Shown: piece by piece, positions 2,985 to 17,512 of the stretch
Layout of the letters: each line of letters starts with the position of its first letter
Position numbering within the stretch: position 1 is the stretch's first letter
Assembly: GCA_964492935.1 (NCBI GenBank)
Contig: CAZBLF010000006.1
Location: 1-43,649, forward strand
Direction of reading: 5' to 3'
DNA: 43,649 nt
Origin: an uncultured Methanosarcinales archaeon
GTDB lineage: Archaea > Nanobdellota > Nanobdellia > Woesearchaeales > JACPBV01
Notes under the pieces: model-generated
The model's input: the letters and a program-made list of their open reading frames with translations, nothing else
What the model was told of the DNA's origin: nothing
Database searches by the model: none
Position numbers and translations under genes: made by a program

Positions 2985-3998
2985 ATGAAATTAAAAGAAA
3001 ACAAAACATACAAATTCCACATTGGGCAACAATCGACATTAATTTCAAAGGCAGCTAGCAAAGCAGGATCAGTAAGAAATCTATCAATTAATTTAAGAAT
3101 TCCCGAGCGGACACTAAAGCATTACAAGGCCGAGGATTTTACTATTCCTTCTCTAAGACTACAACAATTAGTTGATTATCTTCAAATACAGTCAGGAGAT
3201 ATTTCTAAAATGATAAAAAAGGAATTACCCAGACATTGGGGATCTCGTCTTGGAGGACTGAAAACCTACTCAAAAAAGAATCGAAAGGATCTATTGAGAG
3301 ACATGAACTACATTAGATCTTTTAAGAAACCAATAATTTACGATAAGAAATTTCCCTTGACCAACTTTTTTTGTGAGTTTTATGGTATTCTGATGGGCGA
3401 CGGCTGCATTTCAAGCTATACTGACTACCAGGGTAACCGGAGATTGGACCTCATTATCACAGGTGACAAAAGATACGAAATGGCTTATTATCAATACATG
3501 AAAAAAAGGTTGAGGGAGGAATTCAATATCAATAGTTATATCTACCAATTGAAGAAGAGGAATTCTGTCAGACTCACAATAAGAAATAAGTATTTTAGCA
3601 ATTTTCTGATTAATTTTGGATTCCCTAAAGGAAATAAGTATAAGGTCTTAAGAATACCGCCACAAATTATGAAATTTAAGTGGGAAAAGCTAAAGTTCGT
3701 AATTCGAGGGCTTTTTGACACCGATGGGAGCATCTTCGCAAACAAAAATGAAGGATATAGATATCCATATATTTGTATCACATCTATAAGTGGGAAACTA
3801 CTGAATCAATTGTATGGAATCCTAAGAGCTAGAGGTTACCCGGTTTATCTCAGTAATGATAATCTTTTCATGAGGGGAATAGCGAATGTCAATAAATGGA
3901 TGAATGATGTTGGATCTTCCAACCCAAAACATAAATTTAAATACAACTACTGGACTTCAAAGGGCGTATTGCCTGCGAGATTATTATCGGGCCCGTGA
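2985..3998 (+). CDS. Free-standing double-motif LAGLIDADG homing endonuclease with N-terminal HTH-like extension
   Basis: Motifs FYGILMGDG and IRGLFDTDG; AT-rich. Stop TGA (3996-3998) lies inside the tRNA-Ala 5' end. Confidence 0.88.
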   Translation: MKLKENKTYKFHIGQQSTLISKAASKAGSVRNLSINLRIPERTLKHYKAEDFTIPSLRLQQLVDYLQIQSGDISKMIKKELPRHWGSRLGGLKTYSKKNRKDLLRDMNYIRSFKKPIIYDKKFPLTNFFCEFYGILMGDGCISSYTDYQGNRRLDLIITGDKRYEMAYYQYMKKRLREEFNINSYIYQLKKRNSVRLTIRNKYFSNFLINFGFPKGNKYKVLRIPPQIMKFKWEKLKFVIRGLFDTDGSIFANKNEGYRYPYICITSISGKLLNQLYGILRARGYPVYLSNDNLFMRGIANVNKWMNDVGSSNPKHKFKYNYWTSKGVLPARLLSGP

Positions 3999-4101: not shown

Positions 4102-4515
4102 ATGGAAAACGAATGTATTTTTTGCAAAATCGCTGAAGGAAAAATCCCAGCAACCAAAGTCCACGAAGACGATAAGCTATTGGCCTTCATGGACATAGCC
4201 CCTGCTAACGTAGGCCACACCCTAATCATCCCAAAAGCACACCATGAAATTCTAACCGATATCCCAGATGGGTTACTAACAGACATGACACTCTTAACCA
4301 AGAAAATAGCTAGAGCAACCCTTTCAGCACTAGGCGCAGAAGGCTTTAACGTTATGATGAATAACAAAGAGGTTGCAGGACAAGTAGTACCACACGCCCA
4401 CATCCATATTATCCCAAGATACAAGGGCGATGGCCAGCAAATTCACATAGCACCCAATCCAAGAGCAGCAGCATCAGTAGACGAAACCGCAGAGAAGATA
4501 AAGAAATTCTTATAG
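4102..4515 (+). CDS. HIT family hydrolase
   Basis: CIFCKI N-terminus, GHTLIIPK and the HAHIHII histidine triad. Confidence 0.95.
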   Translation: MENECIFCKIAEGKIPATKVHEDDKLLAFMDIAPANVGHTLIIPKAHHEILTDIPDGLLTDMTLLTKKIARATLSALGAEGFNVMMNNKEVAGQVVPHAHIHIIPRYKGDGQQIHIAPNPRAAASVDETAEKIKKFL

Positions 4516-4553: not shown

Positions 4554-5300
4554 ATGGTACTCATACCAACACTCATCAGCGTCATCATCGTTAGCTTAAT
4601 CTCATTAGTAGGAATCCTCTCCGTAATCGTATCCGGAAAGAACCTCAAAAAAATCCTAGTATTCTTTATCAGTTTCTCCGCAGGATCTCTTTTTGGAGGA
4701 GCCTTCTTCCATCTCTTACCCGAAGCAGCTGCAACACTAGGAGTAACATTACAATTTTCAGCCTCAATCCTAGCAGGCATTGTATTTTTCTACGTTCTAG
4801 AAAATTTCATCCACTGGCGACACTGTCACATTCCAACGAGCCACGACCATCCTCACCCGGTAGGCACCATGAGCCTTATTGGAGACGGATTACACAACCT
4901 CATCGATGGTATGGTCATAGCAGCATCCTATCTCATCTCCATTCCAGCCGGCATCGCAACAACCGTAGCCGTAGCCATCCACGAGATCCCTCAAGAGATC
5001 GGAGATTTTGGGGTATTGATTCATGCAGGATATTCAAAGGGAAAAGCACTCTTCCTCAATTTTTGTTCAGCATTGCTAGCAGTAGTGGGAGCACTCACCG
5101 TGTTAGCGATAGGTGCGAAATCTCAACTCTTCGCAACATTATTAGTGCCCTTCACCGCAGGCGGCTTCATCTATATCGCAGGAGCAGATCTCATTCCAGA
5201 ATTAAGAAAGGAAGTCTACCCCATGTCAAAATTACTCACCCAATTCGTTTTCTTCCTAGCTGGAATTGGAATAATGCTACTGTTAACTTTCATAGAATAA
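4554..5300 (+). CDS. ZIP family metal transporter
   Basis: HLLPEA, a His-rich loop, GDGLHNLIDG and HEIPQEIGDF motifs; multiple TM segments. Confidence 0.95.
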   Translation: MVLIPTLISVIIVSLISLVGILSVIVSGKNLKKILVFFISFSAGSLFGGAFFHLLPEAAATLGVTLQFSASILAGIVFFYVLENFIHWRHCHIPTSHDHPHPVGTMSLIGDGLHNLIDGMVIAASYLISIPAGIATTVAVAIHEIPQEIGDFGVLIHAGYSKGKALFLNFCSALLAVVGALTVLAIGAKSQLFATLLVPFTAGGFIYIAGADLIPELRKEVYPMSKLLTQFVFFLAGIGIMLLLTFIE

Positions 5301-5348
5301 CAACCTTTTTATAACAAATTCTGATTCTTTTTAATTGGTGCTGGAGAT

Positions 5349-5547
5349 GCCGGAGTTGCACGATTATGTGCTCCGAGAGCTCAGCCTGGTTAGAGCGCTA
5401 CATTGGATTTGTTTCCAAAGCGAGGCTCATATGTTTGAGCGCTGACCCGTAAGGGGATGACTCAAATCTAACTGGGTGACGTAGAGCAATCGAGAGAAAT
5501 CTCAATGCGCGAAAAAGTCGTGGTTTCAAATCCCACCTCCGGCACCA
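5349..5547 (+). tRNA. tRNA-Met(CAT), elongator type, with four predicted introns (5357-5377, 5402-5424, 5432-5478, 5485-5514); CCA encoded
   Basis: Spliced product GCCGGAG TA GCTC AGCCTGGTTA GAGC G CTACG CTCATAA CGTAG AAGTC GTGGT TTCAAAT CCCAC CTCCGGC A CCA folds as a cloverleaf. Three strict BHB motifs and one relaxed motif. Confidence 0.88.
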
Positions 5548-5613
5548 TTTTCTTTAAATTCACTTTTGGAATTCATTCAAATCACAAAAAGAAGGTAAAC
5601 ATCAAATAATAAT

Positions 5614-5704
5614 TTTCCACTTGCCAACTTAGGTTGTCAAGTCTGAAAGCAAAGAATTCTTACTCTTTAGGTATTCAAGAGGTAAAATCAATTTCCACTT
5701 GCCA
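5614..5704 (+). repeat. Direct repeat TTTCCACTTGCCA (5614-5626 and 5692-5704) upstream of the endonuclease gene
   Basis: 13-nt identity; each copy is preceded by GGTAAA(C)ATCAA. Confidence 0.7.
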
Positions 5705-5779
5705 CTTGCCAGGTGCGGCCGCAGCCTTCTTAAGGAAAATCAATTACAAAGTTTAATCAGTACTAGTAGATCGATTCAA

Positions 5780-6703
5780 ATGAAAAATATCCAAAAGGAA
5801 ATAATAGAAGTTATCAAGTATGTCCCGAGAGAGATTATCCCAAGACGCGGCCATCTGAAACCCCTCAGAGCAGAAGCAAAAGGTAATTCGATCATATTAA
5901 GCTGTAATCACTGTAAGCCAGTTAGAATCAAGAAAGAGATTACCCTCAGAGCAGACGAATACCAGGGAGTGGGACTCTATTTGGCAGAAGGAACGAAGTA
6001 TTACAACCTCAATAAGAAAACGCATCATTGCGGAGAAATAAGCTTTTCAAACTCATATCCTGAATGCATTTTAATCATCTCTAAACTATTTAGTAAATTC
6101 GGCATCAGTCCCAGAGAGTTAAGATGGAGGATTGGACTCAATATAAATCTTGAAGAGACGATTTCTAATGGGGAGTTAGCTGAATTCTGGATAGCCAGTG
6201 CGAAATTGGACAGATCTAAAGCCAGACCAAATGGATTTTACTTCAGTGGTAATAGGGGAAAACGACTCTCAAAAAATCCCGGAAATAAAGGATGCCTTCA
6301 TATCCATTACGCATCTACGATTCTGAGAAATGTTTTCACCTTCTTCATAACTAGAAAACTGGATGAGGCGATAGAAGAAAGGTCTGAATGGAAGTCAGCA
6401 ATGATCCTGAAGGGATTTTTCGCAGGGGATGGGTGTGTGACATATTCGAAAAAGCACAACGGAAGACAGGTAGAGTTCATATGTCATGACAAGATATTAA
6501 TCGAAAAACTTAGAAAATGCCTGCAAATTCTTGGGCTGAAATCCATAAAGGAAACCTGGCCTGCTACTACAAAGACCCACTCCAAGGCGTTGCGCATTTA
6601 CAACACACATGATTTTAGAATTCTAGAGAAATACGAGATTCTAGAACTCATCCCACACAAACGCGAAGTGTTCAAGAAACTGCTTAAATCATTACCACCA
6701 TAA
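5780..6703 (+). CDS. Free-standing double-motif LAGLIDADG homing endonuclease-like protein
   Basis: Motifs GVGLYLAEG and LKGFFAGDG. ATG 5780 is preferred over TTG 5699. Confidence 0.8.
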   Translation: MKNIQKEIIEVIKYVPREIIPRRGHLKPLRAEAKGNSIILSCNHCKPVRIKKEITLRADEYQGVGLYLAEGTKYYNLNKKTHHCGEISFSNSYPECILIISKLFSKFGISPRELRWRIGLNINLEETISNGELAEFWIASAKLDRSKARPNGFYFSGNRGKRLSKNPGNKGCLHIHYASTILRNVFTFFITRKLDEAIEERSEWKSAMILKGFFAGDGCVTYSKKHNGRQVEFICHDKILIEKLRKCLQILGLKSIKETWPATTKTHSKALRIYNTHDFRILEKYEILELIPHKREVFKKLLKSLPP

Positions 6704-13079: not shown

Positions 13080-13105
13080 AAACTCACCTCCAAGGGAACA
13101 GAAAG

Positions 13106-13177
13106 GGCGGTAGCCGAGAATCGAACTCGGACCGCAAGGCCCACAACCTTGTATTCTACCAGTAAACTACTACCGCC
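13106..13177 (-). tRNA. tRNA-His(GTG), intronless, G-1 encoded
   Basis: G GCGGTAG TA GTTT ACTGGTA GAAT A CAAGG TTGTGGG CCTTG CGGT CCGAG TTCGATT CTCGG CTACCGC C, with G-1:C73. Confidence 0.95.
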
Positions 13178-16293: not shown

Positions 16294-16359
16294 ACCTCAA
16301 TCATGACATTTGCCCTATAAATAGCTTACGAAAAAAACGCCAGCCCCCAAAAAAATAAA

Positions 16360-16473
16360 CGCCACCGCCCGGATTCGAACCAGGATATCCAAAGGAAAGA
16401 CGCTCTCACGATGATGTCCTGAGCAAGCTCAAGATTTCGAGGCGACCGCAATACCAGATTATGCGACAGTGGC
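16360..16473 (-). tRNA. tRNA-Ser(CGA) with 31-nt canonical 37/38 intron (16405-16435)
   Basis: GCCACTG/CGGTGGC acceptor, G73, long variable arm, CT-CGA-A loop, CCTGG-TTCGAAT-CCGGG T arm. Confidence 0.9.
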
Positions 16474-16679
16474 ACAATCATCAAAAACAGCTGCTAGAAT
16501 AAAAAGGTAATGAAAAATCAATCTCCTAACGAAGCGTGAAGTGATTCAGCTTGCTTTCTCACTTTCTTTTCCATAGATAACACTTTTTGCGACATGTCGA
16601 CCGGCTTCTTAGTCGCCGCGACTACACCATAGGAGCAGTAAAAATAAAATGGTGAAGCCACATATGGCCTCACCAATAA

Positions 16680-16806
16680 CGCTGCGACTCGGATTTGAAC
16701 CAAGATAGGCCGAAGCCAACAAGCTGTCTGGTACGATTTTCCAAGCCTACGCCTTCTTTATCGAGGATAAAAAAGTTTGCGCAGTACCAGATTGTGCCAT
16801 CGCAGC
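16680..16806 (-). tRNA. tRNA-Ser(GGA) with two introns: 29/30 (16747-16776, 30 nt) and 37/38 (16726-16738, 13 nt)
   Basis: GCTGCGA/TCGCAGC acceptor, G73, long variable arm. BHB helices GCGC/GCGT and TTGG/CCAG. Spliced anticodon arm CAAGC-TTGGAAA-GCTTG. Confidence 0.9.
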
Positions 16807-16807
16807 A

Positions 16808-17512
16808 CTAGTTTTTCAATTCCGCCTTTTTATTTAAACCTAATGTTTTTGAGAGAGTGTTTGATTTTTTAGAATGCCAAAATCCAATTTTCTGGCGAAA
16901 CAATTCCCGAGACTTCTTTTTATTGATGAAGATAATGCTTACAGGAGAATGCTTTTTATTCTTTGGCAGATATTCATAACACCGATGATCTATTTCCATT
17001 TCTCGAAGCAATTGTGAAACCTGACCCATGCCCTTTTTATTTATTGTCTGAATCTTAATACATTTGGGACCAACATAAGCTTCTGCAGAAAAGAAAGCTC
17101 GTAACCAAGCTTCTTTAGCCCCATTAATTTTAAAAAGTTTCCAGGGCAAACTCCAATCCAACAGACCGAAGGTTGAATGTTCAATCAAATCTTCGTATAT
17201 GGTGCGAGAGGTGAGCCGCACGTAGTAAAAATTGTTTCTCAATTTTATTGAAAAAATCCTCCCGTACACATGTTTCATCGCACCACAAAAATATTCAAGC
17301 ATCTCAGGATCATCCGGGAAAAATTTTATTTCATGGTGTACATTTGACTTTTCTTTTCTCAATTTTACACTCCCATCTCCCGCTAGAAAGCCACATATCG
17401 CCGCCTTATTAATCAGGGATTCGGCATCGGATCGGATATTTGCTCTTTCTTTACCATGTACTTTGGACCAGCGAGCCAAAGCAACTTTTCTGTTTCTATC
17501 TGAATATTTCAT
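16808..17512 (-). CDS. Free-standing double-motif LAGLIDADG homing endonuclease
   Basis: Motifs ICGFLAGDG and LRAFFSAEA. The stop lies 1 nt upstream of tRNA-Ser(GGA). Confidence 0.85.
   Translation of the reverse strand: MKYSDRNRKVALARWSKVHGKERANIRSDAESLINKAAICGFLAGDGSVKLRKEKSNVHHEIKFFPDDPEMLEYFCGAMKHVYGRIFSIKLRNNFYYVRLTSRTIYEDLIEHSTFGLLDWSLPWKLFKINGAKEAWLRAFFSAEAYVGPKCIKIQTINKKGMGQVSQLLREMEIDHRCYEYLPKNKKHSPVSIIFINKKKSRELFRQKIGFWHSKKSNTLSKTLGLNKKAELKN

Follow-up and report, generated by a model that had tools for sequence, protein, structure and literature searches.

The window examined here, a stretch of 43,649 nucleotides (nt) on contig CAZBLF010000006.1, contains a 199-base tRNA-Met gene (5349-5547, forward strand) that is divided into five exons by four intervening stretches. 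Comparison with related genes makes it very probable that all four stretches are introns that are spliced out, and there are good grounds for confidence that this is a working elongator tRNA-Met(CAU) gene, probably the sole gene of this kind in its host. Two further features of the precursor are considered below: the third intron, at the canonical site 37/38, contains a candidate guide for the methylation of its own tRNA, and the leader contains a spare copy of the acceptor 5' strand that may assist in the removal of the first intron. The source genome (G000) is a 1.15-Mb metagenome-assembled genome (MAG) of 57 contigs that is 84.8% complete, and the host is an uncultured marine archaeon of the Woesearchaeota type (DPANN).

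The gene and its predicted spliced product

When 5357-5377, 5402-5424, 5432-5478 and 5485-5514 are removed, the remaining 78 bases are called as tRNA-Met(cat) by ARAGORN, with an encoded CCA and, in the ARAGORN fold, every stem paired except at 53:61. The coordinates of this gene and of the features around it refer to the forward strand throughout. The exons defined in this way supply tRNA positions 1-8 (exon 1, 5349-5356), 9-30 (exon 2, 5378-5401), 31-37 (exon 3, 5425-5431, with the anticodon CAT at 5428-5430), 38-43 (exon 4, 5479-5484) and 44-73 followed by the CCA at 5545-5547 (exon 5, 5515-5547, which contains the U53.C61 mismatch of the T stem). The unspliced gene is missed by ARAGORN and also by Rfam, both at the gathering score and at E <=10 on 5300-5600. 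An initial annotation, made from the sequence alone, had proposed a tRNA-Met with four splice motifs at these same positions, the fourth of them relaxed, and had predicted that cutting after the second bulge base in each would yield a standard cloverleaf; the present analysis recovers all of these features, apart from the mismatch at 53:61.

The identification as an elongator is based on the anticodon CAU, the G1-C72 pair and an anticodon stem without a run of three G-C pairs at its foot. The only other CAU tRNA found in the source genome is an initiator on contig C11, with A1-U72 and three G-C pairs. A CAU tRNA for isoleucine is probably not to be expected, because a tRNA-Ile(UAU) is present and the TiaS domain was not detected at E <=1 in this 84.8%-complete MAG. 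The initial annotation had named another functional elongator tRNA-Met in the same genome, combined with a lack of spliced junction reads, as an observation that would count against the gene; neither a second elongator-type CAU gene nor a second guide-like intron was found elsewhere in the MAG.

Splice motifs of the four introns

The bulge-helix-bulge (BHB) motifs were scored as the number of central pairs out of four, followed by the lengths of the outer and inner helices in base pairs (bp). Intron 1 (5357-5377, 21 nt, site 8/9) and intron 2 (5402-5424, 23 nt, site 30/31) have strict hBHBh' motifs, with scores of 4/2/5 and 4/3/5, respectively. Intron 3 (5432-5478, 47 nt, canonical site 37/38) scores 4/1/3 in the primary transcript and 4/5/3 after the removal of intron 2. 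Intron 4 (5485-5514, 30 nt, site 43/44 or equally 44/45) has a relaxed HBh' motif, with a score of 3/0/3 in every context. By the criterion that each exon-intron boundary should fall in a 3-base bulge next to a 4-bp helix, introns 1-3 show all 4 central pairs and are flanked by helices, and intron 4 shows 3 of the 4 and an inner helix only. Any shift in the ends of introns 1-3, as read from the sequence, alters the product.

Strict motifs with a length of 12-100 are found at 0.085 of the 5' positions in this genome, and the motif alone is therefore weak evidence. Where the ends of an intron are fixed independently by orthologues, the chance of a motif falls to about 1e-3 per intron, and the comparison with related genes described in the next section is what gives the motifs their weight. 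Searches for copies of the introns elsewhere in the genome returned self matches, chance words of at most 13 exact bases and two imperfect matches of 15-19 bases only; because these are only self and chance matches, transposition of the introns within this genome is unsupported.

Comparison with related genes

The 199-base gene was used as a query against 61 genomes, consisting of G000 and 60 relatives. In four of these (G010, G026, G051 and G058), the BLAST match skips from query base 53 to query base 77 with an ungapped subject, a jump that corresponds exactly to intron 2. Positions 8 and 9 are directly joined in three orthologues (L005, which is from the same genus, L007 and L011), and a plain variable loop is found in five (L002, L005, L006, L007 and L010). 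A related 43/44 intron is present in L003, where pairs of the inner helix are altered, and in L004, where 4 of 4 central pairs were read by eye.

A pattern derived from intron 3 was then scanned across one genome per GTDB species, giving 79 hits, of which the 10 in bacteria were taken as chance. Further scans covered 401 genomes of the order, including 11 flagged as unpublished, and a sample of the phylum, and 157 more regions were fetched. An end-anchored spliced aligner was applied to 266 loci, of which 252 were modelled and 234 passed the filters, representing 188 unique genes; the aligner fails on short D loops or on merged 37/38 and 43/44 introns, and such genes were set by hand. After 12 genes had been corrected by hand, 2 excluded and 5 added, the final census comprises 191 unique related genes. 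Two of its rows (L028 and L029) are from unpublished genomes, with identical sequences also in public records.

In this census, 1 gene has no intron, 114 have one, 59 have two, 14 have three and 3 have four, and none has more. An intron at 37/38 is nearly universal (190 genes), followed by introns in the T arm (35), at 30/31 (33), at 43-46 (16), in the D arm (7) and at 8/9 (5), the last of which fits the suggestion in the initial annotation that 8/9 is a rare site. Conversely, the insertion is absent at 8/9 in 186 genes, with positions 8 and 9 directly joined, at 30/31 in 158 and at 43-46 in 175. The other two genes with four introns are L189 (from G358), which has them at the same four sites as the window gene, each with 4 of 4 central pairs and with a product that ARAGORN calls tRNA-Met, and L008 (from G045), in which introns 3 and 4 show no splice motif at their hand-set ends and the count of four is based on insertions relative to orthologues and on the acceptance of the product by ARAGORN. 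At the level of sequence comparison, every joint of the window gene is supported independently of its motif.

A number of observations weigh against such a confident assignment of the introns. Manual corrections had to be made for 12 genes of the census, and 2 genes were dropped. The BHB classes at 37/38 are mixed among 179 genes (strict in 49, hBH or HBh' in 36, relaxed in 67 and absent in 27), which is partly because the automatic boundaries are imprecise. None of the RNA runs checked for 5250-5650 contains the stretch, and the three that are listed hold next to none of its words.

Introns of other types were also observed in the census. In other families of the order, 7 genes have D-loop introns at 19/20 and 35 genes have T-loop introns between 56/57 and 59/60, with lengths of up to 103 nt; loci with D- or T-loop introns include L082/L136, L083/L130, L153, L247 and 31 others. 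Some of the long T-loop introns appear repeat-like.

Probable order of splicing

The initial annotation had noted that adjacent motifs share nucleotides and had concluded that splicing must be ordered, and both points hold when the pairings are set out in full. In motif 1, pairing joins positions 1-2 to 10-11, and the intron pairs with positions 3-6. In motif 2, positions 22-24 are joined to 32-34 and the intron takes up 25-28, and in motif 4 the intron pairs with 39-41. Motif 3 requires positions 32-35 and the entire anticodon stem; it is incompatible with motif 2 or motif 4, and its outer helix is gained only after intron 2 leaves. Of the shared nucleotides, 5426-5428 contribute both to motif 2 (outer helix) and to motif 3 (central helix), and 5480-5484 both to motif 3 (outer helix) and to motif 4 (central helix and bulge).

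Because the four motifs cannot all form at once, removal of the introns must be ordered, and from the pairings it is likely that introns 1, 2 and 4 are removed first and intron 3 last. The same order is reported for the three-intron tRNA-Ile of the red alga Cyanidioschyzon merolae, where reverse transcription PCR (RT-PCR) showed that the non-canonical introns leave before the 37/38 intron (PMC3728597). In contrast to the window gene, whose order is deduced from the overlap of its motifs, that case concerns a eukaryote and a gene with three introns, and the order is experimental.

A candidate guide and K-turn in intron 3

The sequence of intron 3 is conserved across families, and it contains two adjoining elements. 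The first (5434-5441) is complementary to tRNA positions 30-37, so that G5437 would pair with C34, and its assignment as a guide element is based on conserved spacing and co-variation. The second (5442-5460), assigned from its anatomy in relatives, is a kink-turn (K-turn) in which a D'-like CTGA (5442-5445) and a C'-like GATGA (5456-5460) enclose a hairpin of 3 bp and a GTAA loop (5446-5455). The pattern of the intron is found in 209 of the 401 genomes of the order, as a rule once per genome, compared with 1 of 401 for a backwards control. A strict form of the pattern was detected in 64 of the 117 genomes sampled from the window's order (G000 included), compared with 0 of 34 sampled from other orders of the class.

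The anatomy of the intron, consisting of a guide that ends in GAGYN, a box of the form NNGA, a hairpin and a second box, is kept in all 80 genes compared. The first box is ATGA in 61, CTGA in 9, TTGA in 7 and something else in 3, and the second box, RATGA or a close variant, is GATGA in 63, AATGA in 15 and something else in 2. The hairpin between them has at least 2 bp in 80 of 80 genes, with 28 different stems. By its sequence and that of its relatives, the element is a K-turn of the C'/D' type. In one locus (L103, CAYIEX010000043.1), the 37/38 intron is 145 bases long, with the guide and K-turn at its 5' end and a long hairpin-rich insert behind them.

It is somewhat probable, on the basis of these patterns, that intron 3 carries a guide for the 2'-O-methylation of C34 (Cm34) in its own tRNA. 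Counting upstream from the D'-like box, the base opposite C34 (G5437) comes fifth, and this spacing is unchanged in 80 of 80 genes. In 184 of 184 genes, 5-7 of the 7 exon positions 31-37 pair with the guide, and a hairpin between guide and target in cis is seen in the minimum free energy (MFE) folds. In 183 of the 184 genes, base 2 of the guide forms a Watson-Crick pair with exon base 31 (G:C in 102 and A:T in 81; the remaining gene has A:C), whereas the base that faces it inside the intron pairs with it in 61 of 157 genes, approximately the level expected by chance. Both states of the 31/guide-2 pair are found in 11 of 13 groups defined by acceptor sequence, which suggests that the two states have switched repeatedly. 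The wobble base itself is a plausible target, in that Cm34 of archaeal elongator tRNA-Met is described as the product of a box C/D ribonucleoprotein (RNP) (PMC6601510, PMC2584109).

There are also several features that count against a guide function. With a single K-turn and one short guide, intron 3 is at best half of a box C/D RNA. Terminal C and D boxes were not seen when 5425-5484 was read by eye, and only the one motif was present; with the pair of terminal C/D and internal C'/D' motifs incomplete, intron 3 is not filed as a full box C/D RNA. The guide duplex of a usual box C/D RNA is 10-12 bp, and that of intron 3 is shorter, with a U.U opposition at position 36 in the window gene (read by eye). 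In addition, a complement to the guide within the intron itself competes with the exon, and offers 6 of 6 pairs in 57 of 184 genes.

Several of these features form the case for a structural role, in which the K-turn would be a kink bound by L7Ae that gives the inner helix of the intron its shape for EndA, or a stabiliser of the excised intron, and Cm34 would be made in some other way, if it is made at all. In favour of such a module are the single K-turn, the lack of a visible terminal C/D motif and the shortness of the guide, and the guide together with its complement in the intron would form both the non-canonical stem of the K-turn and the h' helix of the splice motif. Against it, guide base 2 tracks the exon base rather than the base facing it in the intron, and the distance between the partner of C34 and the box is fixed and follows the fifth-base-upstream rule in 80 of 80 genes. 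Box C/D methylation at the wobble C of elongator tRNA-Met is, moreover, already known. A structural role is regarded as a rather unlikely alternative to the guide.

The leader copy of the acceptor strand

Immediately upstream of the gene, the 5' strand of the acceptor stem is repeated with one change as GCTGGAG (5340-5346). Together with the 4 preceding bases, this spare strand (5336-5346) is complementary to 5537-5547, and the resulting 11-bp helix, referred to here as the clamp, is present in both the MFE and the centroid folds. A leader 7-mer that pairs at all 7 positions with the 3' strand of the acceptor is present in 5 of 5 genes with an 8/9 intron. Of the genes that lack this intron, 0 of 183 have such a 7-mer, among them 7 whose acceptor sequence is the same. 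The five genes (those of the window, G080, G094, G370 and G358) are distributed over four GTDB families. In each of them, the clamp extends by 2-4 bp into the gene's own discriminator and trailer, and the sequences of these extensions vary.

Predicted folds separate the two sets of genes in the same way. Among the MFE folds, 5 of 5 genes with the intron have the 3' strand paired with the leader, whereas 7 of 7 controls, which share the acceptor sequence, have it paired with the true 5' strand. For the window gene, whole folds with the clamp and motif 1 enforced reach -78.0 kcal/mol, as against -71.5 kcal/mol with the acceptor stem enforced, and local scores are -24.4 kcal/mol for the clamp with motif 1 and -14.2 kcal/mol for the acceptor stem with an intron hairpin. 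These models give a slight preference to the view that the leader copy helps splicing by holding the 3' end so that the motif of intron 1 can form. A literature search found no paper on a leader device of this kind, which as far as searched is undescribed.

Two considerations count against a function in splicing. The first is that, in 3 of 4 genes, nearest-neighbour energies for the spliced molecules continue to favour the clamp, which is ahead of the true acceptor stem by 4.7-7.5 kcal/mol; with the clamp persisting in spliced folds, its release would therefore need tertiary folding or a protein. The second is that one acceptor sequence is common to the five genes with an 8/9 intron, and these could all trace back to a single gain, in which case the association in 5 of 5 genes would not represent five independent events.

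Both considerations would also fit a leader copy that is a mere scar, left by the insertion or duplication of intron 1 or by a neighbouring mobile gene, with no part in splicing. For 3 of the 5 genes with an 8/9 intron, a LAGLIDADG-like gene follows closely on the 3' side of the tRNA, which would be in keeping with the last of these origins. Against a scar, the 7-mer is retained in five genes of four GTDB families in a leader that is otherwise unconserved (as judged by eye), with the helix extended by gene-specific pairs that fit each gene's own trailer. Moreover, intron and copy are either both present or both absent (0 exceptions in 188 genes), and with the copy in place the predicted fold moves towards the splice motif. 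A scar is for these reasons a rather unlikely explanation, and a role for the leader copy in splicing remains the preferred one.

Processing machinery and a proposed pathway

The proteins and RNAs that would be needed to process this precursor were sought in the source genome. A splicing endonuclease (EndA) of the single-unit alpha type is encoded on contig C25 (11176-11832; 99.8 bits), whose closest solved structure is that of the Nanoarchaeum equitans alpha subunit (E = 1.2e-37), as is the ligase RtcB (575.7 bits). Fibrillarin and Nop5 are encoded in adjacent, apparently co-transcribed frames, and a gene for L7Ae (C1, 33401-33682) and the RNase P RNA are present in the same genome.

The endonuclease is a point against the splicing of four introns. 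Only one alpha-type EndA gene was found, even at E <=10. A second subunit was detected neither with the Pfam model (E <=10) nor in a phmmer search that took this genome's EndA as its query; these queries did not include the beta subunit of N. equitans. Classical alpha4 EndA enzymes are strict in their substrates. Kaneta 2018 reports no more than an association of DPANN alpha4 enzymes that have an extra loop with disrupted tRNA genes.

A pathway can be proposed in which the precursor carries its own processing programme, the leader clamp exposing the 8/9 motif and the 37/38 intron methylating C34 before it is spliced. The transcript would start about 12 bases before the tRNA, and the spare acceptor 5' strand in the leader would pair with the 3' end of the tRNA. 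With the 3' end clamped, the real 5' strand would be free to form the motif of intron 1 with the 3' part of that intron. Introns 1, 2 and 4 would be cut first, and their motifs use bases later needed by the D and anticodon stems. The loss of intron 2 would allow the anticodon stem to form, after which intron 3 would have two alternative folds: in one, positions 30-35 would be paired to the guide next to a K-turn occupied by L7Ae, Nop5 and fibrillarin, resulting in 2'-O-methylation of C34, and in the other, the canonical splice motif would form and lead to excision. All four introns would be removed by EndA and RtcB, and RNase P would remove the leader last. As a whole, this programme is tentative, and somewhat less probable than either of its two main components.

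Alternative readings of the gene

The gene model itself can be read in three other ways, the first of which concerns intron 4. If only three introns were spliced, the tRNA would keep the 30-base stretch at 43/44, either as a variable arm of excessive length or at the cost of its activity. The motif of intron 4 is relaxed, with 3 of 4 central pairs and no outer helix, and its ends can be slid by +1 (43/44 or 44/45) with an unchanged product, the slid version scoring 1/0/1. The stretch can form a hairpin of its own, and among 11 automatically modelled insertions at 43-46, 3 have no motif, 6 are relaxed and 2 are hBH or HBh'. This must be set against the 175 of 191 genes with a plain 5-base variable loop, among which there is no class I tRNA-Met with a 35-base arm, and against the 4 of 4 central pairs found at the same site in L189 and, by eye, in L004. 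The insertions at 43-46 also have a narrow range of sizes (22-31 nt in a census of 81 genes). Retention of the stretch is accordingly improbable, and splicing of all four introns is preferred.

It is still less probable that the gene is a decaying pseudogene or an artefact of assembly. The U53.C61 mismatch in the T stem might suggest decay, the unspliced gene is not seen by ARAGORN or Rfam, and another copy could sit in the missing part of the 84.8%-complete MAG. Against this, the mismatch recurs in the genes of two other species (L060 and L089, in the census of 81 genes) and is read as a trait of the lineage, the other stem pairs are intact, and three strict motifs coincide with ends that orthologues fix, each at a chance of about 1e-3. 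Marine, seawater and vent metagenomes contain the stretch, in a total of 20 DNA runs and 17 studies; nine of the runs may be sources of the assembly, and contigs from 4 runs of 4 studies match the DNA with 0 differences, spanning 5276-5650, 5303-5633, 5388-5650, and 5306-5456 together with 5481-5631. The gene is also the only one for an elongator CAU tRNA found in the genome, and it is flanked by signals that, as read from the sequence, would be expected of a working gene: an A/T-rich, TATA-like box at 5306-5314 is a probable promoter, with a similar box at a comparable distance before the printed orthologues, and a T-rich stretch at 5548-5560 is a probable terminator. A match to CRISPR-DR25 at 5552-5577 (forward strand), the sole Rfam match in 5300-5600 at E <=10, was rejected; it is a small hairpin after the T-run, with a score of 21.5 bits relative to a cut-off of 36, and is most likely a chance match or a terminator hairpin.

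Least probable of all is that the upstream copy is the true acceptor strand and that a longer intron (5348-5377) is removed: an alternative 5' site, scored by hand, has 4 central, 2 outer and 2 inner pairs and was the first choice of the automatic aligner in L060, but the T corresponding to U8 follows the downstream copy in 5 of 5 genes and the upstream copy in 1 of 5, and the upstream copy would form a U.G pair in 4 of 5.

Neighbouring genes and other tRNAs

Free-standing LAGLIDADG_3 (homing-endonuclease-like) genes flank the tRNA-Met gene at 2985-3998 (+) and 5699-6703 (+) of the window. A further one is found in the window at 16811-17512 (-), and others are present elsewhere in the source genome on contigs C16 (9424-10107), C2 (42290-43027), C1 (88571-89188) and C11 (15479-16102). 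Genome-wide, 6 of 16 LAGLIDADG_3 genes are within 300 nt of a tRNA gene, compared with 37 of 833 open reading frames (ORFs) of at least 200 amino acids (one-sided Fisher test, p = 2.9e-5), and all six of the adjoining tRNA genes appear to have introns, as judged by gene length and ARAGORN calls. At tRNA-Met loci, a LAGLIDADG-like ORF is found 3' of the gene in 7 of 29 loci examined. A relation to intron number was considered, and the link is weak: such ORFs accompany 3 of 5 genes with an 8/9 intron, and among the other genes the figures are 2 of 10 where at least three introns are present and 2 of 14 for the rest. The LAGLIDADG ORF of the window is collinear with that of G080, a member of a different family, and shares 39% identity with it. 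It is possible that the LAGLIDADG genes drive intron gain or retention, and they may be linked to the mobility of tRNA alleles or introns.

Upstream of the tRNA-Met gene, a gene for a HIT-domain protein (4102-4515, +) has conserved synteny and is directly upstream in 5 of 8 loci of relatives; the loci with this arrangement include L273 and L276-L279. Downstream, a gene for ribulose-phosphate 3-epimerase comes directly after the tRNA in G004, whereas in the window the LAGLIDADG ORF lies between the two and looks like an insertion.

The window contains three more tRNA genes, for tRNA-Ser(cga) (16359-16474, -) and tRNA-Lys(ttt) (16679-16807, -), each with one intron, and for an uninterrupted tRNA-His(gtg) (13105-13176, -). 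The initiator tRNA-Met of the genome (C11, 16292-16405, -) has two introns as judged by eye, at about 29/30 (24 nt) and about 38/39 (14 nt), which ARAGORN merges into a single misplaced intron. Of the 28 Rfam tRNA matches in the genome, 18 exceed 80 bases, which points to many introns, although the class II tRNAs for Leu and Ser are inherently long. ARAGORN also reports a tRNA-Glu (C4, 3226-4386) and a tRNA-Leu (C18, 10423-11830) with 'introns' of 1063 and 1316 bases, which may be false calls or very long insertions.

Relation to known systems

The number of introns places this gene at the top of a range that is already known, and the candidate intron-borne guide varies a known device. In the initial annotation, it was held that archaeal tRNAs usually have at most three introns. 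This agrees with sources up to 2021, in which the maximum is put at three per tRNA (the tRNAscan-SE 2.0 paper and Fujishima and Kanai 2014); a 2026 bioRxiv preprint reports up to five introns per gene in Asgard archaea, from sequence only. No paper describing a four-intron tRNA in DPANN archaea was found.

The closest parallels for the arrangement of the introns are found outside DPANN. The tRNA genes of Thermoproteales such as Pyrobaculum and Thermofilum are similarly reported to have protein-spliced BHB introns at canonical and non-canonical sites, with neighbouring motifs that are mutually exclusive, so that one intron has to leave for the next motif to form, but those genes are in Crenarchaeota with three introns at most and an alpha/beta pair of EndA subunits, whereas the window gene has four introns in a DPANN genome in which one alpha-type EndA was found. 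The genes of the Asgard preprint also have many non-canonical introns, are missed by standard annotators and are revealed by compact relatives; they are from another phylum, and the available text of the preprint describes neither a leader copy nor an intron-borne guide.

For the guide, one counterpart is the intron of pre-tRNA-Trp in Haloferax and Pyrococcus, which is also at 37/38, pairs with its own anticodon arm, sets C34 for 2'-O-methylation and is reported to act before splicing (PMC4090602, PMC2584109, PMC7994747). That intron is about 100 nt long and has full C/D and C'/D' motifs with two guides, compared with 47 nt, one K-turn and one guide in the tRNA-Met intron of the window. In Haloferax volcanii, sR-tMet (Joardar 2011) forms a box C/D RNP that is likewise reported to produce Cm34 on an intron-containing tRNA-Met precursor, but it is a separate RNA gene that acts in trans, unlike the candidate guide in the window's intron. 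In Grosjean et al. 2008, the guide for Cm34 of tRNA-Met is called 'always exonic', meaning a separate gene (PMC2584109), and Yoshihisa 2014 calls the tRNA-Trp intron a 'unique example'. The 66-nt tRNA-Met intron of N. equitans, reported to be a stable RNA with box C- and D-like elements (Randau 2012, PMC3491384), is in the same tRNA and at the same site, in a related phylum. The window's intron is shorter than this, and with its strict pattern found in 0 of 34 sampled genomes from other orders of the class, the resemblance need not reflect homology; intron 3 is therefore best described as a compact, order-wide functional relative of the N. equitans case, insofar as the guide is accepted.

Significance

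Genes such as this one are invisible to standard annotators, with the result that small archaeal genomes can appear to be without an essential tRNA, and gaps of this kind in DPANN genomes are reported by Kaneta 2018. A four-intron gene in this lineage would mean that heavy interruption of tRNA genes is not limited to Thermoproteales and Asgard archaea. If the guide in intron 3 is real, it would explain why the intron is retained in 190 of 191 genes, and it would extend intron-guided methylation from tRNA-Trp to tRNA-Met across a whole order. The leader copy, if it works as proposed, would be a simple and testable RNA device that shows how a strand locked in the most stable helix of the tRNA can nonetheless form a splice motif, and the clamp may be a general archaeal solution for introns that make use of the acceptor strand.

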